64,000 bases of DNA from Dehalococcoidia bacterium (GCA_963555985.3 OY820591.1:1952001-2016000); one strand, 5' to 3'. Positions 776-27,936 are shown, counted from the stretch's first letter. Numbers and translations are program-made. Notes: a model not told the origin generated them from the letters alone.

Positions 776-2197
776 TTAGAGCTGATTTCTCATGCTGGCG
801 ATGCGGCCGCGGTCGAGCGGCGGGAGGTGGAAGAACTCGATCCGGGTGGTTGGAGCTTGGGGCCGGGGTTGGGCCAGCTCGTGGCAGTAGCGGTCGGCGT
901 CCAGGAGGTCGTCGTCGCGGTCTCGGGGTTGGGGGTTGGCGGCGCGGGGGTCTCGCCACTGGTACTCGCGCATCCGGCGCGGGAACTGGACGAGCTCGGG
1001 GGTGTAGAAGGAGGTGGGCGGGTCGTTCGAGAGGCGTTCTTGGACCAGGCCGATGCCCTGGTGGACGGAGCCGGGCCCGCCCCGGCTGGGGCGGATGTCG
1101 CGCCCGCGGCGGTGGAGGTGGTCGATCCAGGCGGATTGGCTGCGGTCGGCGTTCCAACTGATCGAGCCGAAGCGCCGGCGGCAGTGGAGCATCCACTGTT
1201 CGAGCCGTTGAGTGACGCCGGGGCCGCGGTCCTCGAACTCGGCCAGGCGGATGAGGACATTGGGTCCGCAGACGGCGTAGCGGGCGGTGAGGCCGGCGAC
1301 GATGCCGGCGGTGTAGTGGGCCTGCTCGGTCTGGGCGCCGAAGTCGAGGCCGCCGAGGTAACGCTCGAAGCTGGGCAGGCGCTTATCCCAGAGGTGGCGT
1401 TTGGGGTCGAACTTGGGGTAGACCAGACCCTCGAAGGCGTCGAAGCGGCCCTCGATGAAGCGTTCGACCCAGTCGGGCGGGAGCAGGGCGCGTTGCTGTT
1501 CGGCGTAGTTGTCGGGCAGATGGGGGTTGTCCTCGATCTTGGCGGGGATGAAGACTGCTTGTCCGCCGGCGTGCTCGAGTTCAGCTTTGTTCAGTTCGCG
1601 TTGGACGAACCAGCGCTCGAACCAGCCTGGGTGGGGGTTGGAGGCGGCCACGAACCAGCGTTGCGGTTGGGCCGGGTGGCGGAGTCTGGTCAAGAGCATT
1701 TGGGCGGCTTCTTCGGCGACTTCGCCGGCTTCGTCGATCAGGACGGTGCCGTACTGCTGGGAGCCGAGGCCGGTCCAGTCGGAGAGATGGCGAAAGTGGA
1801 TCGTGGAGGGTTCGCTCGAGTACTGGAGGCTGCTGACCGTGAGGGAATGGGTGGGTGAACTGCGGCGTTGGACGGTGAGGTCGGGGTCAGCGGTGCAGAT
1901 GCGCAGGAACTCGCCCATGGTCGTGGTGTAGAGGTCTGTGAACGTGTCGCGTGCGAGCAGGATGTTGTTGCCCGGGAAGATCAAGGCCGCGTCCAGGGCG
2001 AGCTCGGCCAGGGCGCGGGTCTTGCCGCCGCCCATGGCGCCGCCGTAGCCGACCAGGGCGAGGCCGGGATTGGGCACGGTAGCGACTGCGCAACAGAGCT
2101 CGCGCTGTCTGTCCGTCGGAAAAAAACCGCGAGACTTGTGCAAGCGGTCGAACGCAACGACCGCCCGCTTTGAGCTGGGGGTATTACTGTGGCTCAT
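776..2197 (-). CDS. terL: phage terminase large subunit (PBSX/Terminase_6-like)
   Basis: Walker A YGGAMGGGKT, Walker B VLIDEAGE, AASNPHPGW, DNPHLP, RNase H-like GGLDFG and DDDLLDADRY. Confidence 0.9.
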   Translation of the reverse strand: MSHSNTPSSKRAVVAFDRLHKSRGFFPTDRQRELCCAVATVPNPGLALVGYGGAMGGGKTRALAELALDAALIFPGNNILLARDTFTDLYTTTMGEFLRICTADPDLTVQRRSSPTHSLTVSSLQYSSEPSTIHFRHLSDWTGLGSQQYGTVLIDEAGEVAEEAAQMLLTRLRHPAQPQRWFVAASNPHPGWFERWFVQRELNKAELEHAGGQAVFIPAKIEDNPHLPDNYAEQQRALLPPDWVERFIEGRFDAFEGLVYPKFDPKRHLWDKRLPSFERYLGGLDFGAQTEQAHYTAGIVAGLTARYAVCGPNVLIRLAEFEDRGPGVTQRLEQWMLHCRRRFGSISWNADRSQSAWIDHLHRRGRDIRPSRGGPGSVHQGIGLVQERLSNDPPTSFYTPELVQFPRRMREYQWRDPRAANPQPRDRDDDLLDADRYCHELAQPRPQAPTTRIEFFHLPPLDRGRIASMRNQL

Positions 2198-2540
2198 CCT
2201 CTTCCTCTTCGCTTTCCTCGTCCTCCGTCAGGGGGACGTCTTCGCCGCGCATGAGGGCGGCTGCTTGGGCGTGGACCGAGTGGAGGTGGAACTCCTTCTG
2301 CTGCTCAGCGGTGAGCGGGGCTTCGGGCAGGTGGGGGGAATGGTTGGGCCGGGGCGGGGGCTCGGGGTGGGGCACGATGCCGAGCGCGTGGTGGATCTCG
2401 CGGCTCTTGGGGTTGGCCGGGGAGAGTTCGCGGCGCAGGATGGCGAAGGCTTGGGCGCGGACGTAGCCGGGTTCGCGCTTGCAGAAGGCGAGCTCGCCGA
2501 CGCCGGCCATGGCGGACTGGTAGCTGTAGTTGAAGGGCAT
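2184..2540 (-). CDS. hypothetical protein overlapping terL start; positional small-terminase candidate
   Basis: ATG 2540 preceded by GAGAGGA; 118 aa with acidic tail; 14-bp overlap with terL. Confidence 0.5.
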   Translation of the reverse strand: MPFNYSYQSAMAGVGELAFCKREPGYVRAQAFAILRRELSPANPKSREIHHALGIVPHPEPPPRPNHSPHLPEAPLTAEQQKEFHLHSVHAQAAALMRGEDVPLTEDEESEEEEDEPQ

Positions 2541-2740
2541 GGGTCGGGGTTCCTCTCTTGCTGAATAAAGGACACTTGATCTTATATGGATGGGTGCTCG
2601 GGTGGGTAATTTGGGGGTGTGTCGTGGTTGACTGAGGGTTGGGGAGTCCCCCCCTCTGTCGCTACGCGACATCTCCCCCCGCGGAGGGGGGGAGAGGGGA
2701 GAAGAAGGGAAGGGGTGAGGTGAGGGTTGGGTGCTGGTCA

Positions 2741-2776
2741 CGGCGAGATACCCGCGACGGAGCGCGGGTATGACGG
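2741..2776. repeat. REP-like palindrome family B (GAGATACCCGCG-N-CGCGGGTATGACG)
   Basis: Copies near 8485, 12097, 21005, 51280, 51341, 62649. Confidence 0.85.
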
Positions 2777-2868
2777 AGCTTGTTTGGGGCGGGGATGACG
2801 GAGGTGGGGATTTCGCAACGGTCTCCGCAGGCGGGAGTCCGGATGCCATTCGAGACGCCGCATGGATT

Positions 2869-3909
2869 TCCTAGTCTCACAGACGAAGTGCGACAGATGA
2901 TTGAGGTGAGCCCATGGGCGCGCAGTACACGCAGTTGGACCTGGCGGAGCGATGCGCGGTTGCCCGCTTACAGGCCGAGGGGCGCTCGATCCGGCAGATC
3001 GCTGCAGCTCTGGATCGCTCGCCATCGACGATTGCTCGAGAGCTGAAACGCAACACGGCGCGCGACGGCTACCGTCCCGACTACGCCCAGCAACAGGCCC
3101 AGGCGCGGCGCTGGCGCGGTTCGCGGCTGGAACGCGACGATCAGCTGCGCGCGCGGGTGCTGCGCGAGTTGGCCCGCGGGCTCTCGCCGCAACAGGTCGC
3201 AGGCCGGCTGGCGCGCGAGGCGGGCGCGCCGGTGATCTCGCACGAGAGCATCTACCGCTTCATCTACGCCCAAGCCTCGCGGGCCAAGCCCGGCCGCGGC
3301 GGCGGTTGGCGCCAGTATCTGCCGCGGCGCAAGGCGAAACGCGGTTGGCGCGGGCGCAAAGGCGGCAGTTCGGTCGAGCGCATCCAACTGCGGCGGCCCC
3401 TGAGCGAGCGCCCGGCGGCGGCCGCCGGGCGGCTCGAAGCCGGTCACTGGGAGGCCGACCTGATGCTCTTCGGGCGCGGCGGTCCGCTCCTGCTGATGCT
3501 GCACGAGCGCTCCTCGCGGCTGCTCGTGGGCTTGCCCGTGGCGGGCAAGGCGGCCGCTCCGGTCGCGCGCCTGCTGCTCAGCCTGCTCCGCGCCTGGCCG
3601 CCCGCCCTGCGGCGCACGGTCGCGTTCGACAACGGGACCGAGTTCGCCCGCCACTACGAACTGCACCGGCTGGGCGTGGAGACCTTCTTCTGCGACCCCT
3701 ACGCGCCCTGGCAGAAGGGCGGGATCGAGAATGCGATCGGACGCCTGCGCCGGGTCCTGCCGCGCCGGCTCGACCTCGCCCAACTCAGCCTCGCGCGTTT
3801 GATCGAAGTGCTGCAGTTGTACAACAACACCCCCCGCCAGTGCCTCGACTACCTCTCCCCGGCCGAAGTCTTCGGTCGGCAGTTGTTGCAGTTGCAATGT
3901 GAACCCACC
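2869..3909 (+). mobile_element. IS30-family insertion sequence (~1.04 kb)
   Basis: Imperfect terminal IRs (TCACA-N4-AA-N-TGC-N-ACA at both ends), flanking TT duplication, interrupts a repeat that is intact at 26421-26466; ends uncertain by about 1 bp. Confidence 0.85.
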
Positions 3910-3930
3910 TTCCCGCCTGCGCGGGAATGA
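2914..3930 (+). CDS. IS30-family transposase
   Basis: HTH SIRQIAAALDRSPSTIARELKRN, ISHESIY, GHWEADL, FDNGTEF, PWQKGGIENAIG, YNNTPR. Confidence 0.95.
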   Translation: MGAQYTQLDLAERCAVARLQAEGRSIRQIAAALDRSPSTIARELKRNTARDGYRPDYAQQQAQARRWRGSRLERDDQLRARVLRELARGLSPQQVAGRLAREAGAPVISHESIYRFIYAQASRAKPGRGGGWRQYLPRRKAKRGWRGRKGGSSVERIQLRRPLSERPAAAAGRLEAGHWEADLMLFGRGGPLLLMLHERSSRLLVGLPVAGKAAAPVARLLLSLLRAWPPALRRTVAFDNGTEFARHYELHRLGVETFFCDPYAPWQKGGIENAIGRLRRVLPRRLDLAQLSLARLIEVLQLYNNTPRQCLDYLSPAEVFGRQLLQLQCEPTFPPARE

Positions 3931-4025
3931 CGGAATTGGGGATTTACGCGCGGGTCTCCTCAAGGGGGATGGGGGAGGCGATAGGATGGGTGGTACTGGG
4001 ACTGGCCAGGTATTGGGCTTTGCCG

Positions 4026-4841
4026 ATGTGCAGTGGGCGGACGACATCGACTCGCGTTCGAGCGGTTTTTCCTGATCCGCCACGACGGCCGGGGGATATG
4101 ACCAGCTTTAAACACATCGCGATCAGCGGGAATGCTCATCACCTGCTTCAGCACTTCATTGAGCGGGGCGGGCGGCCGGAGACCATGCTGGTTGGGGGCG
4201 AGCTGTATTTGAGTCCTGATTTCGGGGTGGGGCGGCGGGGATTGCGGGTGCCTGACCTGTTGGTGGCGTTCGATGTCGACATAGAGGCGTATTACCGCAG
4301 CAATGCGTATGTGATTTCGGAGCAGGGCAAGCCGCCCGACTTTGTGCTGGAGGTCGCTTCGCCGAGCACGGCGCGGGTGGATACGGGAGTGAAGCGGGAG
4401 GCGTACGCGGCGCTTGGGGTGGGAGAGTACTGGCGGTTTGACGAGACGGGGCGGTTGCATGGGGCGCGTCTGGCGGGCGACCGGCTGGTTGAGGGCGAAT
4501 ATGAGCCGCTTGCGCTAGAGGAGTTGTCGGCGGATGCGGTGCAGGGGTACAGCGCGGCGCTCGATTTGCATCTACGCTGGGAACGGGGCGAGCTGGTGTT
4601 CGTTGATCCGGCGACGGAACGTCGGATCCTGAGCTATGAGGATCAGCGTCTGCGGGCGGATGAGGAAACGGCGGCGCGGATTCGGGCGGAAGCGCAGCTC
4701 GACCAAGAAGAGGCAGCGCGCGTTCGTGAAGAAGCCGCGCGGGAGCGGGCGGAGGCCGCGCGCGAGCAGGCCGAGGCGCGAGTGCGCGAATTGGAACGAC
4801 AACTTGAGGGCCGCTCTGAGGGCGGCGAACAGGAAGCGTGA
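4026..4841 (+). CDS. Uma2-family PD-(D/E)xK endonuclease with coiled-coil tail
   Basis: VPDLLVAF, PPDFVLEVASPST, K-x3-YAALGVGEYWRFD; start codon uncertain. Confidence 0.85.
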   Translation: MCSGRTTSTRVRAVFPDPPRRPGDMTSFKHIAISGNAHHLLQHFIERGGRPETMLVGGELYLSPDFGVGRRGLRVPDLLVAFDVDIEAYYRSNAYVISEQGKPPDFVLEVASPSTARVDTGVKREAYAALGVGEYWRFDETGRLHGARLAGDRLVEGEYEPLALEELSADAVQGYSAALDLHLRWERGELVFVDPATERRILSYEDQRLRADEETAARIRAEAQLDQEEAARVREEAARERAEAAREQAEARVRELERQLEGRSEGGEQEA

Positions 4842-7539: not shown

Positions 7540-8343
7540 ATGAGTGCGACGCGGACGTGGGTACTGGGGCTTGCGGTGGCCGGCGTGCTGGCGGCGCTGT
7601 CGGCGAGCGCTTGCGGCTCGCAGGGGGACGGCGAGCAGCCGGAGCAGCCGGTCAGCTATCAGGCGGGGGCGACGGAGACGACGGAGCGGCCGGATCGCCA
7701 GTCCACGGTTGCGGCCGGCCAACCGGATCAAGCCGAGCAAGCTGAGCAGAGCACGATCGATAGCGAACAAGCCGATGCGGAGCCTGAGGATGACGGCGCG
7801 GTCAGGGAAGTGCTGCGGCGTCACCGGGAGGGGTTGCAGGCGAACCGGAATGTGGTGGGCGATCCGAATGCGCCGATCACGATTGTGGAGTATTCGGACT
7901 TTCAGTGAAGCTCCTGCCGCCGGTTCGCGGCTCAGGCTGAGCCGCAGATTATCGAGGAAGTGGTGCGGACGGGGCTGGCGAAGTATGAGTACCGGCACTT
8001 TCTGATTTTTGGGGCGCAGTCGGAGTTTGCGGCGCTGGCGACGGAGTGCGCGGGGGATCAAGGTCACTGGTGGGATTTCCACGATGAGTACATGACGGGG
8101 AATGCGGTGCGTTATACGCGCAAGGGGGCGCTGGAGTACGCGGCTGAGCTGGGGATGGACGGTGAGGAGTTCAGTCAGTGTCTGGAGGACGGTCGTCATT
8201 TGGGCCGGATCGAGGCGATGCAGCGTGAGGCGTATGAGCGTGGGATACCGGGGACGCCGACGATCACGATTAATGGCGAGCGGGTGGGGAATTCGCCGGC
8301 GACGATCATTCGCCGGGTACGGGAGTTGGCCGGGGTGGAGTGA
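7540..8343 (+). CDS. DsbA/thioredoxin-like lipoprotein, selenocysteine UxxC (UGA 7906-7908)
   Basis: EYSDFQ-TGA-SSCRRF; GIPGTPTITING; lipobox-like ASAC. Confidence 0.88.
7927..7945 (+). promoter_or_regulatory. SECIS-like hairpin
   Basis: GCGGCTCA-GGC-TGAGCCGC at the same spacing from UGA as 7103. Confidence 0.75.
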
Positions 8344-8582
8344 GGGGGTTTTGGGGGATATGAGTGTACGGATCGCTTAGGGGACCCCCCTCTGTCCCCC
8401 CGCCTTCGCGGGGGCAGGCTCTACGGGACATCTCCCCCCGCAAGGGGGGAGAGGGGAGCTGGGGTTTGGGGTTGGTAGTGCTCACGGCGAGATACCCGCG
8501 GCAAGCGCGGGTATGACGGAGCTGTGGGCGCGGGAATGACGGAATGTGGGATTACGCGCAGGTCTCCTTGAGGGGGAGCGGG

Positions 8583-8789
8583 TTAGGCGGGGTCGTCTTT
8601 GGGGTGGGGGGTGTGGAGAGGGAGCGGGGTGCGCTGGGATTGTTTGCAGCGGCGGCAGCGCCAGACGACGACGATGTGGGCTTCGTAGTCGTGCTCGACG
8701 ACGCTGTGGAGGGCGGGGCGGCCGTTGTGTTGGACGCTGGGGCAGTCGGGGTTTTGGCAGCGGACTTCCTGCTTGTGCGGGCCGGTCAT
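8583..8789 (-). CDS. small zinc-ribbon protein, Com-like
   Basis: EVRCQNPDC...WRCRRC in 68 aa; AAGGAG RBS; directly downstream of the portal candidate. Confidence 0.6.
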   Translation of the reverse strand: MTGPHKQEVRCQNPDCPSVQHNGRPALHSVVEHDYEAHIVVVWRCRRCKQSQRTPLPLHTPHPKDDPA

Positions 8790-8831
8790 TGAGGCTCCTT
8801 TGGGGATTGCGAGTTTCGGGGCGTCAGTGGA

Positions 8832-10778
8832 TCAGGGATGGGGGACGCGCTCGTCGGCGGGATCGGTGAGCGGGGAGAGCGGGGGCAGGTGGGCGCGAGT
8901 CGTGATCGAGGCCGCCGAGCTGGGTTGGGTCTTGGCGGACGGGCTGACGGTGGCGAGTTCGCGCTCGAGTTCGGCTTGCTCGCGACGCCAGGCGCGATGC
9001 CGGGCGAGCGTTTCGGCGGCGTGCTCGTCGCCGATGTACTGCTCCAGATAGGCGCGCTGGTCAAGCGGATCGAGTGGATCATTGAGGCGGGCTCGTCCAT
9101 GTTCCTGGACGGCGATGCGCTGGGCGGTGGAATAGGGATCGATCCAGACGTCGATATCGAGTTCGGCGAGTTGTTCGGGGGGGACGCCGACGGTTTCGCT
9201 GCGGCGCACGCGCCCGTCGCCGGACTTGGCATAGGTCCAGACCGGGCCGCCGAAACCGCCCTCGGCGAGGGGCTTGGACATGACCAGGGCCATGTTGCGC
9301 AGCATCACCCGCACCGCGCGGGCTTGATTGCGCTTGAGTTGTTGCACCTGCAAGCTGCGCGAGCCGAGCAGCAGATTGAGCGTGTGGGGTTGGGTGTTGG
9401 GGCCGATCTCGCCGCGTTCGACCGCGCCCGCGTCGGGGGCGGCGGCGATCAGTTCGTCGGCGGACATGCGCAGGAATTCAACGAAGGCGGGGTCGATCCG
9501 AAACTCGATGCGGTGCAGCGATGCGCCCTGGGGGAGGGTGCGCGCGGCGGCGGTATCGGGCGTCAGGGCGACCCGGTTGCCGTCATCATCGGTCTGCCAG
9601 GAGCCGTCGGCGAGTTGGACCCAGTAGAGCGGGAGCGCGGTCTGTTCGGCGAGGAAGCGTCCGAGTGAACGCTCGTAGTCGTAGCCCGGCTTGACGCGAT
9701 AGACGCCTTCCATCGCGGGTTCCCAACGGTAGAGCGGATCGGGATGTTCGTTGACGTCGGCCTCGGCCAGGACGAAGGGCGGCATTTCGTAGGGATGGGG
9801 ATGGGACTTGATCAAGAGCCAGCGGTCGTTGGCGGGGGCGGGGGCGGCCAGTTCGTAGTACTCGCGGCGGGTCCAGACGGAGGCGACGCGGATGCGCTCG
9901 CCCCAACCGTCCCCCGACGGTTCATCGGCCTGGGGCGCAGCGGCCGGGCTGCCGATCGCCAGTGAGGGTTCGTCACCGAGCCGATGTAGGCGAAGCTCGA
10001 TGCGGTCTTGACGGCGCACGCGATCGCGGTAGTCGAACAGAGCCAGTTCACGGAGGACGACCGCGAGTCCAAGTCCGTTGCCGGCCCCGCGATCTTCGAT
10101 GAAGGCGAACTGATCGGGGCGGATGACCTCGATTTCCCAAGGGAAGCCGGCGTTGGCCTGCGCCTGCCGATCGCGGTTACGGCGGCTCGCTTCGGTTTCG
10201 ATCCAGTCGGCGTCGGCGTGATCGTTGGGTTGTGCGCGGCGGAAGCGTTGTCGTTCGCCGGGGTCGCGCGGCTCCGTGTCGCGGGTTTCGGCGGGCGGAT
10301 AAGCGGGCAGCCGGTCGAGCGCGCGTTGCCAGTGAAGCACGCCGAAGCAAAGGCAAACCTGTCCATAGCCGAGCGCGGCCTGGATGTTGATGCCGCTGCG
10401 TTCCTGGAGCAGGCGCAGTCCGTGCTCAAAGACGTGTTCGAGATCGTCGGCGGCGCGGCGGGCCGCGTCGGACTGATCGGGCGGCTCGACGTGGACGCGC
10501 AAGGGATGCTCGGTCAGGCGCTGGCGGAGCTGCGCCCAGGTGCGTCGGAGCAGGTCGGTCTGCCACGGTTCGGCCTTGCTGTGAGTCTTGTCGAAGCGGG
10601 GATTGACCGCTTCGCTGTTGTAGAGGTGCTGCTCGCGGTGGAGGATGCGGTCATGCAGAACTCCGAAGCGAGTCAGCGCGCCGCCGCCGGCGCGTCCGCG
10701 TCCGCCTCCCAACTGTTCGAGGATGCGATTGAGGTCGTCCTCGGAGAGGGTGTGTGCCAAGATTCGGTTGTGCGACAT
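8832..10778 (-). CDS. putative phage portal protein
   Basis: ~650 aa with portal-like segments (FPWEIEVIRPDQFAF, HPYEMPPFV, helical C-terminal half); terminase and capsid genes in the same window. Confidence 0.6.
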   Translation of the reverse strand: MSHNRILAHTLSEDDLNRILEQLGGGRGRAGGGALTRFGVLHDRILHREQHLYNSEAVNPRFDKTHSKAEPWQTDLLRRTWAQLRQRLTEHPLRVHVEPPDQSDAARRAADDLEHVFEHGLRLLQERSGINIQAALGYGQVCLCFGVLHWQRALDRLPAYPPAETRDTEPRDPGERQRFRRAQPNDHADADWIETEASRRNRDRQAQANAGFPWEIEVIRPDQFAFIEDRGAGNGLGLAVVLRELALFDYRDRVRRQDRIELRLHRLGDEPSLAIGSPAAAPQADEPSGDGWGERIRVASVWTRREYYELAAPAPANDRWLLIKSHPHPYEMPPFVLAEADVNEHPDPLYRWEPAMEGVYRVKPGYDYERSLGRFLAEQTALPLYWVQLADGSWQTDDDGNRVALTPDTAAARTLPQGASLHRIEFRIDPAFVEFLRMSADELIAAAPDAGAVERGEIGPNTQPHTLNLLLGSRSLQVQQLKRNQARAVRVMLRNMALVMSKPLAEGGFGGPVWTYAKSGDGRVRRSETVGVPPEQLAELDIDVWIDPYSTAQRIAVQEHGRARLNDPLDPLDQRAYLEQYIGDEHAAETLARHRAWRREQAELERELATVSPSAKTQPSSAASITTRAHLPPLSPLTDPADERVPHP

Positions 10779-18903: not shown

Positions 18904-18925
18904 GGAGCGGTTGCCGGACGGCGAT

Positions 18926-18956: not shown

Positions 18957-19189
18957 CTCCGCGCGGACGCTGACGACGTTACGTTCATGATCGTGTCGTG
19001 AGGTGTTGCACGAGATATTCATCAAACAGGCATTGGCGTTAGTTTGTAATCATGATTTGCACACCGACAGGCGACGCGAGGATTGCGCGCTGGCGAGGAG
19101 TCGATTTGAACGCCCACAGCACTGCTCGCAGGTCTCGACCGCGCCGATTCTCCCCCCCCCGCAAGTCCTGGGGTCTTTGGGGACAGGGA

Positions 19190-20737
19190 ATGAGGCGGCG
19201 GGGGCCGGCGGTGCTGGCGCTGGGGTTGTTGACGCTGTTGCTGGCCGGGGCGCTGCTTCCCTCTGAGACCAAGGCCCAGTCGGTGCCTGACAAACCGACG
19301 ATCACGGCGGTTATTCCCGTTGGGGGCTGCATCATCGTGCGTTGGACACCTCCCGCCGACGACGGTGGCTCGGCAATCCTTCAGTACAAGATCGACGATC
19401 CCGGCGCTGGCGTCGGCGAAAAAACGGTCGGGAGCAGTGTTCGGGAGGTGAAGTGGGGCAACTCCGGCTGCACCTTGTTTGGTCATCTGGAGTTCGACAT
19501 GCGAGTCCAGGCGCGCAACGCGAATGGCTGGGGGTCTTGGTCCGACCCGGTCAGTTCGACTCCGGTCAAACCGACTGTGACGGCTTCCAACCAGGCACCG
19601 ACCTCCGCGACTATCTCCGTCACCAACTTGAGCAAGGCACCGTGGTGGTATCAGGGCGACCAGCCCGGTACCGTCTGTACCGCGGTTGCGAAGGGGACCA
19701 CCTCAGTCGATTTGACAGGCCTGAGCCCGTCTAACACCTACACCTACAGGGTCTTCTACGACGACGACTGCAATACAAATTCGGAGCTCAACAGCGCGAC
19801 CTTCACCACCTCGGACCCCACCGAGCCGGCCAAGCCGGATGCGCCCACGCTGACCGTCGGGGACCAACAGATCCGCGTCTCATGGTCTGCGCCGGAGAAC
19901 AACGGCTCGGCGATCACCGACTACGACGTGCGGTACTCGTCGGATGGCGGCTCAACCTGGACGGAGTGGAATGCGTCGGACGACGGGACGACGCGCAGCG
20001 CGACGATCACGGGCTTGACGAACGGCACGACCTATCAGGTGCAGGTACGGGCGACGAACACAATCGGCGTCAGCGACTGGTCGGTCTCAGCCACGGCTAC
20101 GCCGGCGCAGCCGCAGGCCGAAGTCCATTATGAGATCGTCCTTCGAGGGGCGGTGGAGCGGGCGTCGAACGAGGACGAACCGGAACCGTTGTCGCTGTAT
20201 TTTCCGACGCGGAGTCTGAGCGATTGCGAGGAGCCGGTCGACTCGGATTGCGGCTCGCTGACTTTCCCCGACGGCGTGTATGCGGGTCTGGACGAGGCGG
20301 TCTCGGAGACGGTGCGGGAGAACATCTGGGGTTCTTATGTGGTGACGGACGAGGTTGGGACGGCGCGGGATTGGGAGCGGCGCTTCCGGGTGTGGTTGGA
20401 TACGGATCGGCTGGGCTTCGAGCTTGAGGGTCGGCGCTATTTTGCGCTGCCGAGGCGGGCGGTGTTCGATTTGGACCTGTGGGTGATCTACTACATGGCG
20501 GAGCGGGGGATGAACAGCGTGCGGCTGGCGGAGCGTCCGTTCGAGCCGATGTTGACGGTGTGTTTGCCGCTGCCGTTGGGTCAGGCTGAGGCGAGCGTCG
20601 CGGTGTGGGATAAGCGGGAGTGGGGCTGGAGGTTGCTGGAGTCGGCGGTGAGCCTGGATGAGGAGCAGGTTTGCGGGTTGACTCCGTATGTGACGGTGTT
20701 CGGTTTGGTGGCGCCTGAGTTGTCGCAGGGGCCGTGA
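19190..20737 (+). CDS. secreted fibronectin type III repeat protein
   Basis: Signal peptide; VRWTPPADDGGSAILQY, VSWSAPENNGSAITDYDV, ITGLTNGTTYQVQVRA. Confidence 0.85.
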   Translation: MRRRGPAVLALGLLTLLLAGALLPSETKAQSVPDKPTITAVIPVGGCIIVRWTPPADDGGSAILQYKIDDPGAGVGEKTVGSSVREVKWGNSGCTLFGHLEFDMRVQARNANGWGSWSDPVSSTPVKPTVTASNQAPTSATISVTNLSKAPWWYQGDQPGTVCTAVAKGTTSVDLTGLSPSNTYTYRVFYDDDCNTNSELNSATFTTSDPTEPAKPDAPTLTVGDQQIRVSWSAPENNGSAITDYDVRYSSDGGSTWTEWNASDDGTTRSATITGLTNGTTYQVQVRATNTIGVSDWSVSATATPAQPQAEVHYEIVLRGAVERASNEDEPEPLSLYFPTRSLSDCEEPVDSDCGSLTFPDGVYAGLDEAVSETVRENIWGSYVVTDEVGTARDWERRFRVWLDTDRLGFELEGRRYFALPRRAVFDLDLWVIYYMAERGMNSVRLAERPFEPMLTVCLPLPLGQAEASVAVWDKREWGWRLLESAVSLDEEQVCGLTPYVTVFGLVAPELSQGP

Positions 20738-21071
20738 TTGGGGCGCATTGGGTGCTGTGAGGAGTGCGCTTCGTCGGACGGGGCCCCTCCGTTACTTCGT
20801 GAGATGTGGTGTAGCAGATAGCACGGCGGCGTTCTCACCCCCTCTGCCTTCGGCATCTCCCTCCCCGCCTGCGCGGGGACAGGCTCTCAAGGGGGAGATC
20901 GATTTTGGTCTACGTGCAGGTCTTCCAAAAGGGGAGGTTTTGGGAGTTAGCCGACGGCACCGTCGGTGGCGCGCCGGTCGTGTTCGCGACGACGGTACAG
21001 GTCATGGCGAGATACCCGCGGCAAGCGCGGGTATGACGGAGTATTGGGTGCGAGGAGGGGAGGTTTGGGGG

Positions 21072-23558
21072 TTAGCCGAGGGTTCCGGCGGCGGCTAGGC
21101 GGGTGATGTCGGTGTCGGTGTAGTGGAGGAGGTGTCGGAGGATGTGTTCGGTGTGTTCTCCCCAGAGGGGGGCGCGCTCGGTTTTGAGGCGCTGGTTGTC
21201 CCAGAGGATGGGTTCGTGCTGGATGTGGAGGCTGGGGCCTTCGGGGGATTGGGCGTGGTGATAGTTGGCGCGCATGGCGTGGTCTTGCTCGAAGAAGTCG
21301 CGCAGGCGCTCGACGGGGCTGGCGGGGAGGCCGGCGTTGAGCAGGAGTTGGGCGGCGCTCCACTCATCGTGTTGGCTCGACCAGCTAGAGATCGCGGCTT
21401 CGATTTCGTCTTCGGCGGCTTGGCGGCCGGAAAGCGTGGCGAAGTCGTCTCGCGCGGCAAGGTCGGCTCGTCCGATCACACGGCAGAGGGATCGCCATTC
21501 GTTGTCGCTGCGGCAGGCGAGCGCCAGCCAGCGATCCTCGCCGGCCGCGGGGAAGACTCCGTGCGGAGACATCCAGGGAGAGCGGTTGCCGATGCGGGGG
21601 CGTTCGGGGATGCCGTTGAGAGCTTCGAGCAGTTCGGTGTCGAGGAGGTGGGTGGCGGTTTCGTATTGCGCAACCTCGACGTAGCTGCCCTCGCCGCTGC
21701 GCTCTCGTTGCTCCAGGGCTGCCAGGACGGCGGCGGCGAGATAGTAGGGGACGGTGAAGTCGGTGTGGAGGGTACCGAGGCAGATGGGGGGTTGGTGTCC
21801 GAAGCCGGAGCGGTAGGCGAGGCCGCTCATGCCGACGATGCCGTTGCCGTAGGAGCGCCACTCGGCGCGGGGGCCTTCGATGCCCATGACGGCGACGTTG
21901 CAAAGGATGATGGCGGGGTTGATTTGGGAGAGCACGTCGTAGCCCACGCCCCAGCGGTCGAGGACGTAGGGGGTGTAGTTGGAGGTGACGACGTCGGCGG
22001 TTTCCGCCAGCCGGAGGATCGCTTCGATTCCCTCCTCCGTCTTGAGATTGAGGGTGCAGGAGAGTTTGTTGGCGCTGCAATCGTTGAAGACGCCGTTGGT
22101 GTTGAGGGAGAAGCGATCGGGCGGTTGGACACCGATATAGCGGATGGGGTCGAGGCGTCCCTCGGATTCGATTTTGATGACTTCGGCCCCGAGGTCGGCA
22201 AGGAGGCGGGTACCGAGTGGTCCGGCGATAGCCCAGCAGAAGTCGAGGATGCGGACGCCGGCGAGGGGTTGGCGTGGGGGTGGTTGGGGGACCCCCCTCT
22301 GCCGCTTCGCGGCATCTCCCCCCGCACTGCGGGGGGAGAGGGGAGCGTGCTTCGGGGCATCTTCGTCTGTAGTGCGGGGAGAGAGGGGAGCGGGCTTCGG
22401 GGCGTCTGTTGCTGTCGGGAGGGAGGTGAGGATTTCGTGGGTGTGTTCTCCGAGCATGGGGGCTCGTTTGGCTTGGGGTTGTTGGCCTCGTTGGCGGATG
22501 GGTGGGCGGGGGAAGGTGAGGGCCTGGTTGAGTTGAGGATGGTGGACTTCTTGGTAGAAGCCTCGGGCGCGGAGGTGGGGATCGTTGGCGACTTCTTCGA
22601 CGGTGTGGATGGGGAGGACGAGCAGGCTGCGGCGCTGGCCTTCGCTGGTGAGTTGTTCGAGGGTGAGGGTCTCGCAGAGGCGGACGACCCAGGGGCGGAT
22701 TTCTTGGTTGAAGTTGAGGTTGCGATAGCCCTCGTCGTCGAAGCGCGCTTCGTGGAGGACTGCGGCGTCTTCGAAGACGCGGTCGCACCAGTCGACGAAC
22801 TTGTACCAGTGGGGCGGGTGGATGGTGAAGGTGAGCCAGTGTCCGTCGGCGCTTTGGAAGGTGGCGCCGCTGCCGATGGGGGTGTGGCGGTCGGGGGAGT
22901 GGTTGTGCCAGGGGTGATAGTTGCCGTTGGCGGTCTGGAGGGTGGTGAAGGCGACGGCTTCCTGCATCCCGACCGTGACCCAGCCGGGGTCTCCGCCGCG
23001 GCGGCGTTGGGTGATCATGGCGAGGGCGGCTTCGGCGGCGACGAGTGAGATTTGCTTGTAGGCGAGGTTGCCGGCGGGCCAGAGGGGCGGGTCTTCGGGG
23101 AAGCCATTGAGGACGATGTGTCCGCCGGCCGCCATCGCGGTCAGGTCAGTCACTGGTTCAGGTTCGCGTTCGTTGCGTCGGAAGACGCAATCGACAACTG
23201 GGATTTGGTGTGTCCAGAGGCCGTCGCGTCCGCGTTGGAGCCAGTCGGCGAGCGCCGGCGCGGGCTGCAAGGGCGCGAGCAGGGCGTCGCAGCGGGGGAG
23301 CATGGTTTCGACGGTTTGCCAGGTGTCGGGGTCGTCGAGATCGACGGCGAGGGAGCGTTTGCCGGCGTTGTAGAGGAGGTGCGCCCAGCCGCGTTCGAGG
23401 CGGTCGGCGTCTGTGTCGAGGGCGGGTTCGCGTCGGCGGAGTTGGTCTCCGCGCTGATCTTCGATGCGGATGACGTCTGCGCCGAGGTCGGCGAGCAGGC
23501 GCGCGCCGAGGGCGAGCGGCTCGTCGGTGAGGTCGAGGATGCGGATGTGATTGAGCAT
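21072..23558 (-). CDS. tandem two-domain CaiB/BaiF CoA-transferase
   Basis: Two ILD..., RLLADLGA(D/E)VI(R/K)IE and APxxGEHT units. Confidence 0.9.
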   Translation of the reverse strand: MLNHIRILDLTDEPLALGARLLADLGADVIRIEDQRGDQLRRREPALDTDADRLERGWAHLLYNAGKRSLAVDLDDPDTWQTVETMLPRCDALLAPLQPAPALADWLQRGRDGLWTHQIPVVDCVFRRNEREPEPVTDLTAMAAGGHIVLNGFPEDPPLWPAGNLAYKQISLVAAEAALAMITQRRRGGDPGWVTVGMQEAVAFTTLQTANGNYHPWHNHSPDRHTPIGSGATFQSADGHWLTFTIHPPHWYKFVDWCDRVFEDAAVLHEARFDDEGYRNLNFNQEIRPWVVRLCETLTLEQLTSEGQRRSLLVLPIHTVEEVANDPHLRARGFYQEVHHPQLNQALTFPRPPIRQRGQQPQAKRAPMLGEHTHEILTSLPTATDAPKPAPLSPRTTDEDAPKHAPLSPRSAGGDAAKRQRGVPQPPPRQPLAGVRILDFCWAIAGPLGTRLLADLGAEVIKIESEGRLDPIRYIGVQPPDRFSLNTNGVFNDCSANKLSCTLNLKTEEGIEAILRLAETADVVTSNYTPYVLDRWGVGYDVLSQINPAIILCNVAVMGIEGPRAEWRSYGNGIVGMSGLAYRSGFGHQPPICLGTLHTDFTVPYYLAAAVLAALEQRERSGEGSYVEVAQYETATHLLDTELLEALNGIPERPRIGNRSPWMSPHGVFPAAGEDRWLALACRSDNEWRSLCRVIGRADLAARDDFATLSGRQAAEDEIEAAISSWSSQHDEWSAAQLLLNAGLPASPVERLRDFFEQDHAMRANYHHAQSPEGPSLHIQHEPILWDNQRLKTERAPLWGEHTEHILRHLLHYTDTDITRLAAAGTLG

Positions 23559-23785
23559 TGGGGGAGGATAGCGGTGGGTGTTGCGGGGGCTGGTTGGGTT
23601 TGGAGTGGATTGTGGCGTGCGGGACCCCCTCTGTCCCCCCGCCTTCGCGGGGGCAGTCGCTGGGGGACATCTGCTCTTGTGGTGTGGGGAGAGTGATTGA
23701 GAATGTCTGTGTGATGTAGATTACATTTGTGGAATTTGAGTTCTCTGGGCGTCTTGGGTAAGTTTGGGTTTCCGAGCACGACTGC

Positions 23786-23854
23786 TGCGCGCCTCCGAGC
23801 GCCGAACGGACAGAGACCGTCGGCGCTCGCAGTGTTTTGAAGGAGGCGCGTATG
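23786..23854 (+). promoter_or_regulatory. RBS-sequestering leader structure of the capsid operon
   Basis: TGCGCGCCTCC (23786-23796) pairs with GGAGGCGCGTA (23842-23852) and encloses a GAGCGCCG/CGGCGCTC hairpin. Confidence 0.6.
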
Positions 23855-24262
23855 CAGACTGATGAGCCCACCCCCGCCGAGTCTCCGCCGGAGCCCTCGG
23901 AGACGGGCGTACTGGCGATCCGTGAAGCGATCCTCGAGGCGATTGGCGAGCTCTCGCAGGAGGAGCGCGAGCGCTTGACCGCGTCCGAGCAGCCGCAAGA
24001 GACCGTTCGCGTCTGGCGCGAACTGATCGCGGAGCGGGCGGCGCGGGAGCGCGAACAATCGCTGCGGCGTGAGTTGCAGAGCGAGACTCTGGCGGCTCAG
24101 CCCCAACCAACTCGAGGACTGCATACCGCTGTCGCCCCGGCCGCTGCGCCGGACACGGTCGAACAGTGGACGAATTGGATCCGGGGGATTGAGGACTCCT
24201 CGGAGCAGGCGCGACGGCGGGCCGACTTCGCGGCCTGGCTCGCCAGCCACCCCGAGGCCTGA
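23852..24262 (+). CDS. putative capsid scaffolding protein
   Basis: Acidic, helical 136-aa protein with a Pro/Ala linker directly upstream of the capsid gene; AAGGAGG RBS. Confidence 0.55.
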   Translation: MQTDEPTPAESPPEPSETGVLAIREAILEAIGELSQEERERLTASEQPQETVRVWRELIAERAAREREQSLRRELQSETLAAQPQPTRGLHTAVAPAAAPDTVEQWTNWIRGIEDSSEQARRRADFAAWLASHPEA

Positions 24263-24339
24263 GCGCAGCCTTTGGCCTCTTGCGCGCCGAGTGCGCCGAA
24301 CTTTTCTCACCACGAAGCAGGCAACGAATGGAGAACTTG

Positions 24340-25221
24340 ATGCCTGACACGCTCTCGACGCATGTCGAGTCCGCGAGCAACGAGATCATCGAGCGCACGA
24401 TCGCGCAGATGCCGCAGTCGGCCCCGATGCTCTCGCTGGCGCACAAGGTGACGATCCCGAAGGGATCGAACAAGGCGGAACTGCCCCGGGTGACCAGCGT
24501 CAGCGCCGTGCAGACGCCGGCGGAAGACGCGGAACTGAGCACGCGCTCCCGCTTCACTCTCGGGAGCAAGACGATTACGCCTACCTTCCGCGCGATCCAG
24601 GTGCGGATTCACACCCGCGCGATCAACTACTCGCGCGAAGACTTGGTTCGTCTGGTCTCGAGCGAGATGGCGCTCTCGCAGGGACAGGACATCGACACCG
24701 ATCTGCTCGGCGAGTTCGCCAACTGGCACACGGACAACGATGTCGGCACGACGAACGTGGCTCTCAAGCTCGCCGAACTACGCAAAGCGCGGCGGTTCTT
24801 GCAGTCGGTGCCCCGGGCCAAGGGCGGGCCGCCGCGCGGCGATGTGGTCGCGGTGCTATCTCCGCTGGTGGCGGAACAGTTGCTGACCGAGCTCGGCGCG
24901 CGCGGCGTGGGCGCGGGCAGCCACTACATCCCCCACGGCATCTCCGAGCAGATGATCCGGCGGTTTCACGTCTCCGAGATCTCGCTGATGGGCGCCTCCG
25001 TGTTCGTGGACGGCTACATGACGACGGACAACGCGGGCGACTACATCTGCTCGATGTTCGGGCGTGAAGCGCTGGTCTGGGCCTGTTCGATGGACTGGGA
25101 TCTCTCTGTCTTCGAGGTGCCCGAATGGCCCGGCAAGGTGCTGCGCTCGCTTGCCGACTACGAAGCCGCGATCGGCGGTTATCCCCACCACGGCTGTCAG
25201 ATCACTGCGGACGGAGAGTGA
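24340..25221 (+). CDS. major capsid protein, HK97 fold
   Basis: APMLSLAHKVTIP...AELPRV...AEDAEL...TITP...spine helix DLVRLVSSEMALSQGQDIDTDLL; 293 aa. Confidence 0.8.
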   Translation: MPDTLSTHVESASNEIIERTIAQMPQSAPMLSLAHKVTIPKGSNKAELPRVTSVSAVQTPAEDAELSTRSRFTLGSKTITPTFRAIQVRIHTRAINYSREDLVRLVSSEMALSQGQDIDTDLLGEFANWHTDNDVGTTNVALKLAELRKARRFLQSVPRAKGGPPRGDVVAVLSPLVAEQLLTELGARGVGAGSHYIPHGISEQMIRRFHVSEISLMGASVFVDGYMTTDNAGDYICSMFGREALVWACSMDWDLSVFEVPEWPGKVLRSLADYEAAIGGYPHHGCQITADGE

Positions 25222-25223
25222 TC

Positions 25224-25541
25224 ATGCCGCTCGACGAACGCGGCCTCTACGCCCCGGCCGACTTCTCCGCCCTGCGCTCGCGCCGCTTCGCCGCGCCCCA
25301 GGTTGCTGCCGGACTGCGAGTCCAGCACGGCTGCCTGCGGGAGCCGAAGCAGACTCGGCAAGGACGCGAGTATCTGGGCCGCAACCACCATCTCCTCGGC
25401 CAGGGTTTTCACGACTCACGCGAAGCGGAGCGGCTGCTGCTGGAGGCCGCTGCGCAGGAGGGTCTGCCCCACGACTCCGTCGAGATCGAGGCGCGGCCTT
25501 GGCTGGAGACCGAGATCAATGCCGGCGCGGACCCGAGCTGA
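25224..25541 (+). CDS. hypothetical protein, capsid operon
   Basis: ATG 2 nt after the capsid stop; GGAGAG RBS. Confidence 0.6.
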   Translation: MPLDERGLYAPADFSALRSRRFAAPQVAAGLRVQHGCLREPKQTRQGREYLGRNHHLLGQGFHDSREAERLLLEAAAQEGLPHDSVEIEARPWLETEINAGADPS

Positions 25542-25597
25542 ACGCACTCGGCTCCCGCGCCGGCGCGACCACCAGAGACAGGAAAGGAAACCGAACG

Positions 25598-25960
25598 ATG
25601 AACGAACGCAGCCACAGCTCCGACTCGCAGCCGACCGGCTCGGTCTGGAGCGTCTACCCGTTCCCCCTGGACAGGGGCGAGCGTCCGCTGATCTTCACCC
25701 ACGAGCAGTACCGCAGCCTGCGCACCGATGGGCGGCTGGACGAATACGACATCCTCATGCTGCAGCCCAGCCTGGAGCTTGAGCCGGGTGAGCGCGAGCC
25801 GGACGAGGACAAGCGCTGGCAGCCGGTCGCGGCCAGGAAGTACCTCAAGTACCGAGCATTGGAGTGGCGCGAAGCGGACCAAATCTCGGACCTGCCTGAG
25901 CGCTGGCAGGATCGGGCCGAGCAACTGGAAACGCTGATCGCGGAGCGCAGCTGGGACTGA
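25598..25960 (+). CDS. hypothetical protein, capsid operon
   Basis: GGAAAGGA RBS; protein-like composition from MNERSHS. Confidence 0.6.
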   Translation: MNERSHSSDSQPTGSVWSVYPFPLDRGERPLIFTHEQYRSLRTDGRLDEYDILMLQPSLELEPGEREPDEDKRWQPVAARKYLKYRALEWREADQISDLPERWQDRAEQLETLIAERSWD

Positions 25961-26013
25961 TCCGCTCGGAGCAGCACCAGCGCGCTGAGGAGCAATGCAG
26001 AACGGAGTGAGAC

Positions 26014-26256
26014 ATGACCGAACAGCGAGCAACGGCCGACCAGCCGCCTCCCGCGTGCGCGCGCGGGGCGGCTGGCGGTCCCGCCAACTGCGAGTGCGCC
26101 TCGACCGGCGCGCTCTGGCAGTATCTGCGCCGGATTGAAGGCGGACTCGACCAGATCGAGTCCCGGATCGACCGGCTCTACGTCGCGATCGGGGGCGGGA
26201 CTGTGTTGTTGGCGGCGATCAGTTTCGGAGCGGCGTTTATCGCTCGCGGGGGCTGA
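26014..26256 (+). CDS. small coiled-coil plus C-terminal TM protein (XhlA-like architecture)
   Basis: LRRIEGGLDQIESRIDRL followed by a hydrophobic helix; GGAG RBS. Confidence 0.55.
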   Translation: MTEQRATADQPPPACARGAAGGPANCECASTGALWQYLRRIEGGLDQIESRIDRLYVAIGGGTVLLAAISFGAAFIARGG

Positions 26257-26391
26257 GGGGGTGAGACGTGACGTGGCAGACGGGACCGCGGCGTTTTCAC
26301 CCCCTCTGCCCCCCCGCCTTCGCGGGGGCAGGCTCTTTGGGGCATCTCCCCCTCGAGAGACTTTCGCAACACTCCCCGAACTCCACGCTTC

Positions 26392-26466
26392 GTCATTCCT
26401 GTGAACGCAGGAATCCAGGCGCCACTCGATACGCCGCATGGATTCCCGCCTGCGCGGGAATGACGG
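26392..26466. repeat. dRS3-like repeat pair (ATTCC-N-GGAAT), uninterrupted copy
   Basis: GTCATTCCTGTGAACGCAGGAATCC...GGATTCCCGCCTGCGCGGGAATGAC. Confidence 0.75.
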
Positions 26467-26554
26467 ATATGGGGGTTTGCGACGGTCTCTCGAGGGGCAG
26501 ATTGATCGGGAGTTGAGCATCGGATGTTCCGGTGCAACGGATTGGAGGCTTCGG

Positions 26555-26788
26555 ATGGCGGAGATAGTGAATTCGGGGCGCGGGGAGCGGCCGCTTTGGC
26601 TTCCTCGCGGGAGTGTTCGGGCGCTGATTGCGTTGGGTGTGATTGGCGTTTGGGCGGTTTTGGAGACGGGCGTGTTTGGGCCTGGGGAGGCCTCGGACGC
26701 GGTGCGCTCGATGGCGGTCGCGGTGGCGGCGGGCTACGGGGTGCTGCGCGAACGTGATCGTCGGTTGCAGGAAGGGAGCGGAGTATGA
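26555..26788 (+). CDS. putative holin
   Basis: 77 aa, two hydrophobic segments, PLWLPRGSVRALIAL, basic C-terminus; overlaps the amidase start (ATGA). Confidence 0.6.
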   Translation: MAEIVNSGRGERPLWLPRGSVRALIALGVIGVWAVLETGVFGPGEASDAVRSMAVAVAAGYGVLRERDRRLQEGSGV

Positions 26789-27501
26789 GCAGCACCAGCA
26801 CGAGGGTCCGGCCGGCGCCGGATTTGAGCGGGATTCGGGGTTTGCCGGAGGGTGCGGCGACGATCTGGGCGCCTGCCCATCCGAGCAATTTCTACGCCGC
26901 TGGCTCGCCGGACCCGAAGCGGGGCGGCAGCGCTCCCTACCGGGGCGCGCCGCGCCGTATGGTAGCCATCTGCTACCACACGCCGGAGGAACCCTGGGAC
27001 GACCGCGAGACGACGCCGGAGTGGTTCGCCAATCCCCAGGCGAACGCCTCCACGGGCTACTACGCGGACAGCGACGGCGACCTGTACCAAATGGTGCGGG
27101 ACGCCGATTTCGCCTGGGCGCAGGGAGTGCGGACAGCGCAGCTGGTGCTGCCGCGGCCGCTCTGGTGGCGTGACGAATACGTCTCCTACAACACCTGCAT
27201 GGCCTCAATCGAGATCGAGGGCTACGCGGATCGGATCGGGGAGACGTTCACGGTCGGCAGCCGCCAATTCGCCTCGGTGGTGGCCTGGTCGGCCTATATC
27301 TGCCGGAAGTACGGGATTCCGCCGGAGCGGGCGTATCACCTCGGCCACTCGGAGTTGACGCAGCGCAAGCACGACCCGGGCCCGGCCTTTCCCTGGGAAC
27401 CGTTGCTGGCGGCGGTGGCGGCGCAGCTGGCGCTGGCGGAGCGGCCGCTGGAGGCGCGCGTGTTGGAGTTGGAGCGGCGCGTGTCTGTACTGGAGCGGTG
27501 A
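26785..27501 (+). CDS. N-acetylmuramoyl-L-alanine amidase (Amidase_2, endolysin-like)
   Basis: ICYHTPE, ASTGYY, AWAQG, SIEIEG, GHSEL, KHDPGPAFPW; no signal peptide. Confidence 0.88.
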   Translation: MSSTSTRVRPAPDLSGIRGLPEGAATIWAPAHPSNFYAAGSPDPKRGGSAPYRGAPRRMVAICYHTPEEPWDDRETTPEWFANPQANASTGYYADSDGDLYQMVRDADFAWAQGVRTAQLVLPRPLWWRDEYVSYNTCMASIEIEGYADRIGETFTVGSRQFASVVAWSAYICRKYGIPPERAYHLGHSELTQRKHDPGPAFPWEPLLAAVAAQLALAERPLEARVLELERRVSVLER

Positions 27502-27528
27502 TGCACTGAGGCGAGATGATCGGCTAAT

Positions 27529-27936
27529 GTGTCTTCGACAGATTTTCGGCTCGTCGGACACTACGGGAAGAAGGGCGTCCAGGTCATGGAGGACGATTCC
27601 GGAACGTATCTACGAGGCGGCGAAGACGCGCTCGCTGATCGGGTGCAGTTGTGCTGGTCGCCGACGGCGCAACTGGCGCGCGAATGGGGCGAAGAGGCTC
27701 GCTGGGAGCTGTTCGAGCAGTTGCTGACCTTGCAGGTGGAGCGGAGCGCGAATCGGGGCGCGCCGCTTGCGCCTGGGCGGTATTACGCGGAGGTGTTTGA
27801 CGACGCTGCGGAGGGCGCGCATGGGTTCCTGATTGAGATTCGGGCTGATCGATGTCGCGTAATCGAACGGGTTTGGCAAGAGAAGCCGCGGCGGGAGTTG
27901 CTGGCTTCGGTGGCGTTGGGGTTGGGTCGGTTGTAG
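27529..27936 (+). CDS. hypothetical protein
   Basis: 135-aa ORF co-oriented with the amidase. Confidence 0.6.
   Translation: MSSTDFRLVGHYGKKGVQVMEDDSGTYLRGGEDALADRVQLCWSPTAQLAREWGEEARWELFEQLLTLQVERSANRGAPLAPGRYYAEVFDDAAEGAHGFLIEIRADRCRVIERVWQEKPRRELLASVALGLGRL

Follow-up and report, generated by a model that had tools for sequence, protein, structure and literature searches.

Candidate domesticated phage head, packaging and lysis genes at three loci of a Dehalococcoidia chromosome

To our knowledge, only a handful of independent domestications of phages into gene transfer agents have been described, all of them with tails. The agent of the alphaproteobacterium Rhodobacter capsulatus (RcGTA) is encoded by phage-derived head, packaging, and lysis genes at several chromosomal loci, a layout shared by the genes described here, and PBSX of Bacillus subtilis and VSH-1 of Brachyspira are DNA-damage-inducible defective-prophage particles that package host DNA. 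The subject of this work is a 64,000-nt stretch of DNA from a Dehalococcoidia bacterium (GCA_963555985.3), here called the window, which comprises bases 1952001-2016000 of the 3.15-Mb main contig (OY820591.1) and carries three groups of phage-like genes with host genes between them. The source genome is a metagenome bin of 3.33 Mb in 11 contigs, with 64.9% G+C and an estimated contamination of 7.5%. An earlier note on the window, made from the sequence alone, had proposed that phage genes at three loci, all with intact ORFs (open reading frames), form a vertically inherited DNA-packaging system, and the reading frames of all three loci were verified. We lean towards interpreting the groups as the remnant of a domesticated tailed phage that resembles a gene transfer agent and consists of a packaging module, a portal protein with a Zn-ribbon partner, and a head-lysis cassette. 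Comparative sequence evidence strongly supports the view that this phage-derived set has been domesticated, inherited vertically, and kept under purifying selection; a gene transfer agent function is a reasonable inference. A full-text literature search found no description of such a system in Chloroflexota; the author of the note, too, was not aware of one from this kind of host.

Phage-like genes of the three loci

The packaging module lies on the minus strand near the start of the window. The identity of its large terminase subunit (terL, 776-2197, 473 amino acids (aa)) is secure: the protein matches Pfam Terminase_6N with 37.8 bits (cut-off 22) and PHROG family phrog_2 with an E value of 1.3e-26, and an alignment of 18 terL sequences contains 125 invariant residues, including GGAMGGGKT (52-60), D155-E156, D285, D351, and D429-Y437, which (with D429-D435 for the last stretch) we take to represent the Walker A, Walker B, and nuclease acidic residues. 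The gene is preceded by an ORF of 118 aa with an acidic C-terminal tail (2184-2540, minus strand), the stop of which overlaps the terL start. From this position it is a small terminase candidate, referred to below as terS-like; the labels terS, scaffold, and holin are all used here by position and composition only. Scans at E values up to 1 gave no usable Pfam or PHROG match for the terS-like ORF, and a search of 24 other genomes with the window query did not find it. An ORF of 76-124 aa stands upstream of terL in 8/11 of the relatives' loci that were read, and its similarity to the window ORF is faint (hhalign probability 21.5%, E 0.001). A predicted complex of terL with the terS-like protein received weak support, with a median score of 0.57 versus 0.01 for the best control, a pLDDT (predicted local distance difference test) value of at least 55 for the partner, and agreement between runs in at least 49% of contacts. 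In the calibration of this tool, the pass mark was reached by 58/80 solved complexes and 2/110 mismatched pairs, and scores of 0.60 or less occurred in 7/80 solved complexes and in both of the passing mismatches.

The earlier note had treated terL as a single locus, which proved incorrect. The unit of terS-like ORF and terL (approximately 2.1 kb; about 550-2700 in the window) is present in five copies in this genome with 87-96% nucleotide identity. All five terL copies are intact, share 88-100% protein identity, and form one clade in the terL tree; between them dN/dS (the ratio of nonsynonymous to synonymous substitution rates) is 0.10-0.28 at dS values of 0.12-0.31. The terS-like ORF itself has been multiplied further, to 28 genome copies in units of approximately 480 bp (2165-2643 in the window), 27 of which are intact, with dN/dS of about 0.47. 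These copies encode proteins of 116-126 aa with an acidic tail, and most of them adjoin unrelated host genes (examples are G000:C1:70161-70514 and 2636129-2636482, G000 being this genome). Two host genes flank terL in genera g7 and g8; next to their orthologues, this genome has no more than one terS-like copy and a terL fragment of 69 codons. A second, older lineage of terL paralogues, with its own upstream acidic-tailed ORF, was also observed in g7 (L094 and L095; G018:C1:3458744-3460186 and G006:C4:98619-100133).

The second locus holds a single-copy gene for a candidate portal protein of 648 aa (8832-10778, minus strand; ATG at 10778 with an alternative GTG at 10796) and, directly downstream, a Cys-rich, Zn-ribbon-like ORF of 68 aa (8583-8789, minus strand). 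The small ORF is kept beside the portal candidate in 10/10 of the relatives' loci at 45-58% identity, and a DnaJ-type CxxCxGxG match was found in 5/72 distant members of the portal family. Neither protein has a Pfam or PHROG match. A profile built from 11 portal orthologues reached 172 representative clusters at E values up to 1e-3, nearly all of them proteins of 620-750 aa. When IMG/VR viral contigs were searched for portal homologues with an 18-row alignment, six contigs (L096-L101) were found to encode proteins with 23-33% identity, one of which matches the portal family phrog_104 (E 7.5e-4). In both of the annotated viral contigs (2/2) the homologue directly follows a phrog_2 terL and is itself followed by a gene of 744-835 aa and then one of 1505-1806 aa; a major head protein (phrog_267, E 6e-23) was recognized after these large genes in L096 only. 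In the ESM Atlas, the clusters nearest to the portal candidate (scores 0.95-0.97) are of viral origin and contain P22_portal, SU10_portal, or Head-tail_con. We regard this protein as a candidate portal, a weaker call than that for the capsid.

The third locus, on the plus strand, is a seven-gene cassette that we examined in nine relatives' loci and in 39 public loci. It begins with an acidic, helical, 136-aa scaffolding protein candidate (23852-24262), so named because it precedes the capsid gene; it is kept in 9/9 relatives' loci and in 38/39 public loci. The putative major capsid protein (24328-25221, 297 aa) appears to be of the Phage_capsid_4 / N4-gp56-like type, as judged from Pfam matches below the cut-off, from its homologues, and from the ESM Atlas. 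Its Pfam matches were to Phage_capsid (E 1.5e-3) and Phage_capsid_4 (PF25209; E 5.6e-3, 17.4 bits versus a cut-off of 27), and among its homologues (44-65% identity) PF25209 was matched in 11/112 and PF19821 in one. Comparison with the Phage_capsid_4 / N4-gp56 clusters of the ESM Atlas gave a score of 0.98 with 202/256 features shared. One IMG/VR contig (L142) encodes a 46% identical homologue in the capsid position behind a 315-aa gene, in the order terL (phrog_2), 622 aa, 397 aa, 1249 aa, 315 aa, and capsid. The only Phage_capsid match in the whole genome is the one in the window.

Downstream of the capsid gene are gp3 (25224-25541, 105 aa), a candidate head completion or adaptor protein found in 39/39 loci; the divergent gp4 (25598-25960, 120 aa), found in 39/39 loci with a median identity of 44%; gp5 (26014-26256, 80 aa), which has a C-terminal hydrophobic segment and is found in 37/39 loci; and the holin-like gp6 (26555-26788, 77 aa), which has two hydrophobic segments, occurs in 39/39 loci, and overlaps the start of the amidase gene. 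A role in head completion is possible for gp3 and gp4 alike. Scans of Pfam and PHROG at E values up to 1 returned nothing usable for the scaffold candidate, gp3-gp6, or the Zn-ribbon-like ORF. The cassette ends with an N-acetylmuramoyl-L-alanine amidase, or endolysin (26785-27501, 238 aa; 39/39 loci), which matches Pfam Amidase_2 with 63.1 bits (cut-off 26) and PHROG endolysin families with E values down to 1.6e-10. The earlier note had extended this group to 27936; the last ORF (27529-27936) has no counterpart in 9/9 relatives' loci and probably lies outside the set.

Distribution, inheritance and selection

Genes for terL, portal, and capsid occur together in genera g1, g3, g7, and g8 and in 0/29 of the other relatives searched. 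Among 40 relatives, the carriers belong to g3, g7, and g8, all from the window's own family, and none was found in six other genera of that family or in 16 other families. When the portal profile was applied to 401 genomes across the class, 23 matched, namely G000, 15/15 of g7, 5/5 of g8, and 2/2 of g3, so that the portal is present in 23/23 clade genomes and was not matched in the 378 others. The 39 public records of the capsid cassette are all titled as metagenome-assembled genomes of Dehalococcoidia, Chloroflexi, or Chloroflexota. The 12 carriers group together as a single clade in the RpoB tree built from 35 genomes (SH-aLRT 100, branch length 0.33), and one gain is enough to account for them. 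Each of the capsid, portal, and terL trees recovers the genera and the RpoB topology g3 | g8 | (g1, g7), and the portal tree also recovers the split within g8 of (G014, G022) versus (G019, G007). The vertical inheritance proposed in the earlier note is therefore borne out by one RpoB clade, congruent gene trees, and cross-genus synteny of flanking host genes.

The dispersal of phage-derived genes among host genes was likewise found in relatives, which have the same layout. In G014, terL is located approximately 2.6 Mb from the portal gene, which lies 40 kb from the capsid gene; in G024 the three loci fall within 21 kb, and they are close together in the window genome as well. The order of the seven-gene cassette is kept in 39/39 public loci, and its MFS transporter neighbor is present in 32/39. 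The DUF885, DsbA-like, and recF genes and a pair of paralogous genes that neighbor the portal are kept in g7 and g8, not in g3. The recF neighborhood is not conserved in the outgroup genera outside the clade, leaving no usable comparison with an empty site.

Selection was examined as median pairwise dN/dS (Nei-Gojobori, pairs with dS of 0.1-1.5; the genes are GC3-rich and the values accordingly rough). The values were 0.34 for the scaffold candidate, 0.19 for the capsid, 0.22 for gp3, 0.50 for gp4, 0.23 for gp5, 0.31 for gp6, and 0.24 for the amidase, so the cassette (0.19-0.50) resembles its host MFS neighbor (0.28). No match to the portal, a viral portal homologue, or the capsid was obtained by tblastn against 50,697 phage records. 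The outcomes that the note had listed as damaging to its proposal were not seen in bulk: no contiguous phage of high identity was found, and the capsid was missing from 1/12 clade genomes.

A shared operator-like box and the genomic surroundings

Of the genomes examined, 10/10 have a box of the form G[AT]AC-N4-[GA]TT[CT] upstream of the scaffold gene, 9/11 have one upstream of the portal gene, and 6/9 upstream of the terS-like ORF, against a genome-wide background of 0.079 per kb, or 0.025 per 320-nt region; related genomes are not independent samples in these counts, the three loci are. The same kind of box recurs although the three upstream regions share no homology. In the window, the portal box GAACTGACATTT (10824-10835, minus strand) falls between the two elements of a promoter-like site, TTGACA-17-CACTAT, that precedes the portal gene, and the scaffold box GAATTTGAGTTC (23732-23743, plus strand) lies 120 nt upstream of the scaffold gene. 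The same pattern occurs upstream of recA in 15/22 genomes of the class; in 7/7 clade genomes the recA promoter contains the box with two mismatches or fewer, and in four of these genomes it immediately follows a TTGACA. Upstream of lexA, this genome has partial boxes only, and a genome-wide scan for the strict box gave 92 matches, 56 of them outside long coding frames, which is too noisy to define a regulon. SOS control is suggested because the box is common to the three loci and recA, and the sequences hint that the three loci are one SOS-controlled set.

A conserved, apparently structured leader of 63 nt (23787-23849, plus strand) directly precedes the scaffold gene. Its GCGCCTC/GAGGCGC stem spans the Shine-Dalgarno sequence, which it can bury according to the predicted fold, and encloses a GC-rich hairpin of 12 bp with a T-rich run behind it, a terminator-like arrangement. 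The RNAalifold consensus from 10 sequences is -34.9 kcal/mol with 21 pairs, two of which show a compensatory change. The leader is nearly invariant in 10/10 genomes from four genera and has few covarying pairs, so that its structure is not proven. It has no Rfam match, and a simple promoter/terminator scan found nothing.

The host-like GC content described in the earlier note was confirmed, the first 30 kb of the window having 0.63-0.71 compared with 0.649 genome-wide, and the note's account of ordinary intervening genes was largely upheld. The genes between the loci include DUF885, three DsbA/thioredoxin-like, recF-like, CoA-transferase, and MFS transporter genes, a secreted HTH (helix-turn-helix)-repeat protein, and a fibronectin-domain protein. 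The last of these (fn3, 19052-20737) was considered as a tail gene and rejected: its "minor tail protein" PHROG matches arise only through the fibronectin domains, and it has paralogues in the genome. The name "diiron pair" given to two further genes (12175-13413 and 13600-14706, minus strand; 412 and 368 aa) found no support in Pfam, neither having a match. They are paralogues of each other, highly conserved within the clade (77-93% identity), and this genome has three such pairs. The absence of mobility and replication genes held in so far as no integration or replication gene was recognized beside the three loci in the window, the whole genome not having been screened for such genes; the window does contain an IS30-type transposase (HTH_38 plus rve core; 2914-3930, plus strand), which adjoins the terS-like gene and has ten genome copies with 99-100% protein identity. 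Three Uma2-family genes, putatively restriction endonuclease-like, also lie between the loci (3927-4841, 16241-16930, and 16963-17694, plus strand). Two of them are a tandem pair with 92% identity, and the genome has at least nine such genes.

As described in the earlier note, REP-like repeats border the loci. The repeat is approximately 55 nt long, forms a CCCCCGC/GCGGGGG hairpin, is always on the plus strand, and has 87 matches in the genome. Seven matches fall in the window versus 1.7 expected, and five of these adjoin the three phage-like loci; the positions include 580-636, 8385-8446, 17770-17827, 23625-23656, 26300-26352, and 27958. Three sequencing runs of a single study, from which the bin may derive, yielded metagenome contigs that show no differences from the window over 8549-12126 (covering the Zn-ribbon-like ORF, the portal, and DsbA genes), 23663-26329, and 26449-28000. 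These contigs break at REP-like repeats of very high depth, and none spans 8001-28000; in the bin containing the repeat at 26300-26352 the contig depth is about 11,000, compared with about 20 in neighboring bins. Misassembly is argued against because the dispersed layout also occurs in single-contig genomes of other genera.

Other features of the window and of the genomes compared are set apart from the phage-like set. A low-GC stretch (0.54-0.59) at 40590-45234 on the minus strand, with a 1323-aa Eco57I/MmeI-type restriction-modification fusion, a DUF7387 gene, and a HicB-like antitoxin, is probably a defense islet. A location of the window at the replication terminus was considered and dropped, the GC skew of the whole contig giving no clear origin or terminus. 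In the RpoB sequences (L122-L137), many of the family's genomes and several further families of the class have the Pfam RNA_pol_Rpb2_6 match in two parts (approximately 2-313 and 316-373), and g2, g5, and most of g9 have it unbroken; the sequences suggest that the split reflects a lineage-specific RpoB insertion.

Proposed working, alternatives and comparison with known systems

According to the domesticated-phage interpretation, the set would have entered the common ancestor of four Dehalococcoidia genera and then been inherited vertically under purifying selection, while host genes and rearrangements would have pulled it apart. DNA damage would relieve LexA repression at the GAAC-N4-GTTC box before each locus, procapsids would be built from the scaffold, a capsid protein of putative HK97 type, and the portal, the terminase would fill them with DNA, and lysis of the cell by the holin-like protein and the amidase would release the particles. 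No replication or integration gene was recognized beside the three loci in the window, and any packaged DNA would accordingly be mostly that of the host, as with gene transfer agents. As an idea for the multiplication of the terminase genes, each terS-like copy may carry a packaging start site. Extended further, the set might specify a tail-less, SOS-induced particle that arose independently in Dehalococcoidia and in which the multiplied terS-like copies, each with its own pac site, serve as distributed packaging origins; packaging would then start at many places around the chromosome, giving a gene transfer agent of a distributed-origin type. We consider this extension quite unlikely.

Several observations weigh against the domesticated-phage interpretation. 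The scan of the genome for tail genes that the earlier note had recommended came back empty: there was no match to PhageMin_Tail, Phage_sheath_1, Baseplate_J, Phage_connect_1, Phage-tail_3, or Phage_portal, and the ORFs of the six related viral contigs (L096-L101) gave portal matches only, although searches with six Pfam families and viral ORFs would miss unfamiliar tail proteins, and absence is not proven. For the portal candidate and its profile, sequence and profile searches of the PDB gave nothing meaningful; SPP1_portal was matched in 1/72 portal-family members (E 3e-3), with no significant portal-family match. The AlphaFold2 models of the portal candidate (pLDDT 43, 11-row alignment) and of the capsid (pLDDT 29, 10 rows) were too poor for fold comparison, and because the structure models failed, the portal call rests on gene position in the viral contigs and language-model similarity. 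The boxes in this genome deviate from GAAC-N4-GTTC by one mismatch (scaffold) and two mismatches (portal), and the region upstream of its terS-like ORF has none by regular expression. The LexA operator of Gram-positive bacteria, and of Dehalococcoides, has the form GAAC-N4-GTTC; binding of LexA to the present boxes is presumed from this background and from the comparison with recA. The genes are also not complete everywhere. G002 (g3) has no capsid match even by profile, the portal of G218 is divided between two reading frames, the capsid match at locus L086 is likewise split, and single genes are missing from the public cassettes (gp5 in 2/39 loci and the scaffold in one, a locus that starts inside the cassette). 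Finally, the dN/dS values are rough, as stated, and Mantel correlations between the distances of the cassette genes and those of the MFS neighbor are weak (r 0.24-0.41); MFS paralogy may confuse this test.

The failure to find tail genes and the attachment of the lysis pair to the head genes would also fit a helper-dependent or defensive head module that hijacks the tails of infecting phages or aborts infection through DNA packaging and early lysis of the cell, and the head and packaging set resembles the cargo of capsid-forming satellites. A module of either sort would not by itself serve gene transfer between hosts. Against it, the genes lie scattered at fixed, syntenic positions of the chromosome in different genera. 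With no integrase beside the loci in the window, where the sole transposase is the IS30 copy, and with boxes shared with recA that point to host SOS control rather than control triggered by a phage, we judge this explanation unlikely, though not negligible. The head genes might instead have been co-opted for something other than DNA transfer, such as a protein or RNA compartment, or damage-triggered lysis and DNA release with a structural or storage capsid. The set is tail-less as far as tested, and G002, which keeps portal and terL without a capsid match, indicates that the parts may work separately. The ATPase and nuclease motifs of terL are nevertheless kept in 18/18 sequences and the five terL paralogues are under purifying selection, both of which are hard to explain without DNA packaging, and co-option of this kind appears quite unlikely.

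Remnants of one or several prophages that have no present function and are decaying after being scattered by rearrangements would account for the lack of recognized replication, integration, or tail genes with the set, for the IS30, Uma2, and REP-like elements around the loci, and for the genome without a capsid match and the one with a split portal. This explanation is strongly disfavored and in our estimate very improbable: the portal persists in 23/23 clade genomes and the cassette order in 39/39 loci, dN/dS is like that of the host neighbor, the gene trees follow the RpoB tree, and operator-like boxes are conserved at all three loci. Barely credible is an active temperate phage or satellite with a split genome, or a misassembly that scattered one contiguous prophage. 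The repeated unit of terS-like ORF and terL, repeats that can break assemblies, and the estimated contamination of the metagenome bin would allow it; against it are the single-contig genomes from other genera, in which the loci are dispersed as well, the agreement of the metagenome contigs without differences over three stretches, and the lack of a match among the 50,697 phage records.

The domesticated-phage interpretation makes this case a clade-wide and apparently minimal set of head, packaging, and lysis genes, and a record of a prophage that has been dismantled and interleaved with host genes while staying functional. The candidate common SOS operator would link loci that are megabases apart, and in one lineage there is an unexplained multiplication of terminase genes. 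Particles, if they exist, would allow genes to be exchanged within a group that is abundant but has not been cultured, and would pose the problem of how a capsid with no tail passes its DNA to another cell.

Like RcGTA, the set is vertically inherited within a clade and apparently under host control; RcGTA lacks replication and integration genes, and none was recognized beside the three loci in the window. The RcGTA genes form a full head-to-tail cluster with tail, tape-measure, and fiber genes, whereas no tail gene was found here, and RcGTA is controlled by CtrA, quorum sensing, and GafA, compared with a candidate SOS-type box in Dehalococcoidia. PBSX and VSH-1 are induced by DNA damage, a mode of induction that the boxes shared with recA suggest here, and release by holin and endolysin and a lack of self-propagation would be further common traits. 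They are single contiguous clusters with tails, in contrast to the three loci of the present set, which are megabases apart in some genera and for which no tail was found. Capsid-forming phage-inducible chromosomal islands have a capsid, portal, scaffold, and small terminase of their own, to which the candidates of the present set correspond, and lack tail genes; those islands are contiguous, integrase-bearing, and mobile and use the terL and tails of a helper phage, whereas the present set includes terL, has no integrase beside it, and occupies fixed, syntenic positions in different genera. The viruses of the IMG/VR contigs (L096-L101 and L142) resemble the set in their portal (23-33% identity), capsid (46%), and phrog_2 terL, but have these genes contiguously, in the order terL, portal position, 397-835 aa, 1249-1806 aa, scaffold position, and capsid, and this genome lacks counterparts of their two large genes (tested for L096-L101). 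The capsid, of the Phage_capsid_4 / N4-gp56-like type, and the portal belong to lineages unrelated to those of RcGTA. We conclude that the Dehalococcoidia set is a domestication independent of RcGTA, in another phylum, and that its new features are the candidate SOS boxes, which would connect the loci, and the multiplied terminase genes.

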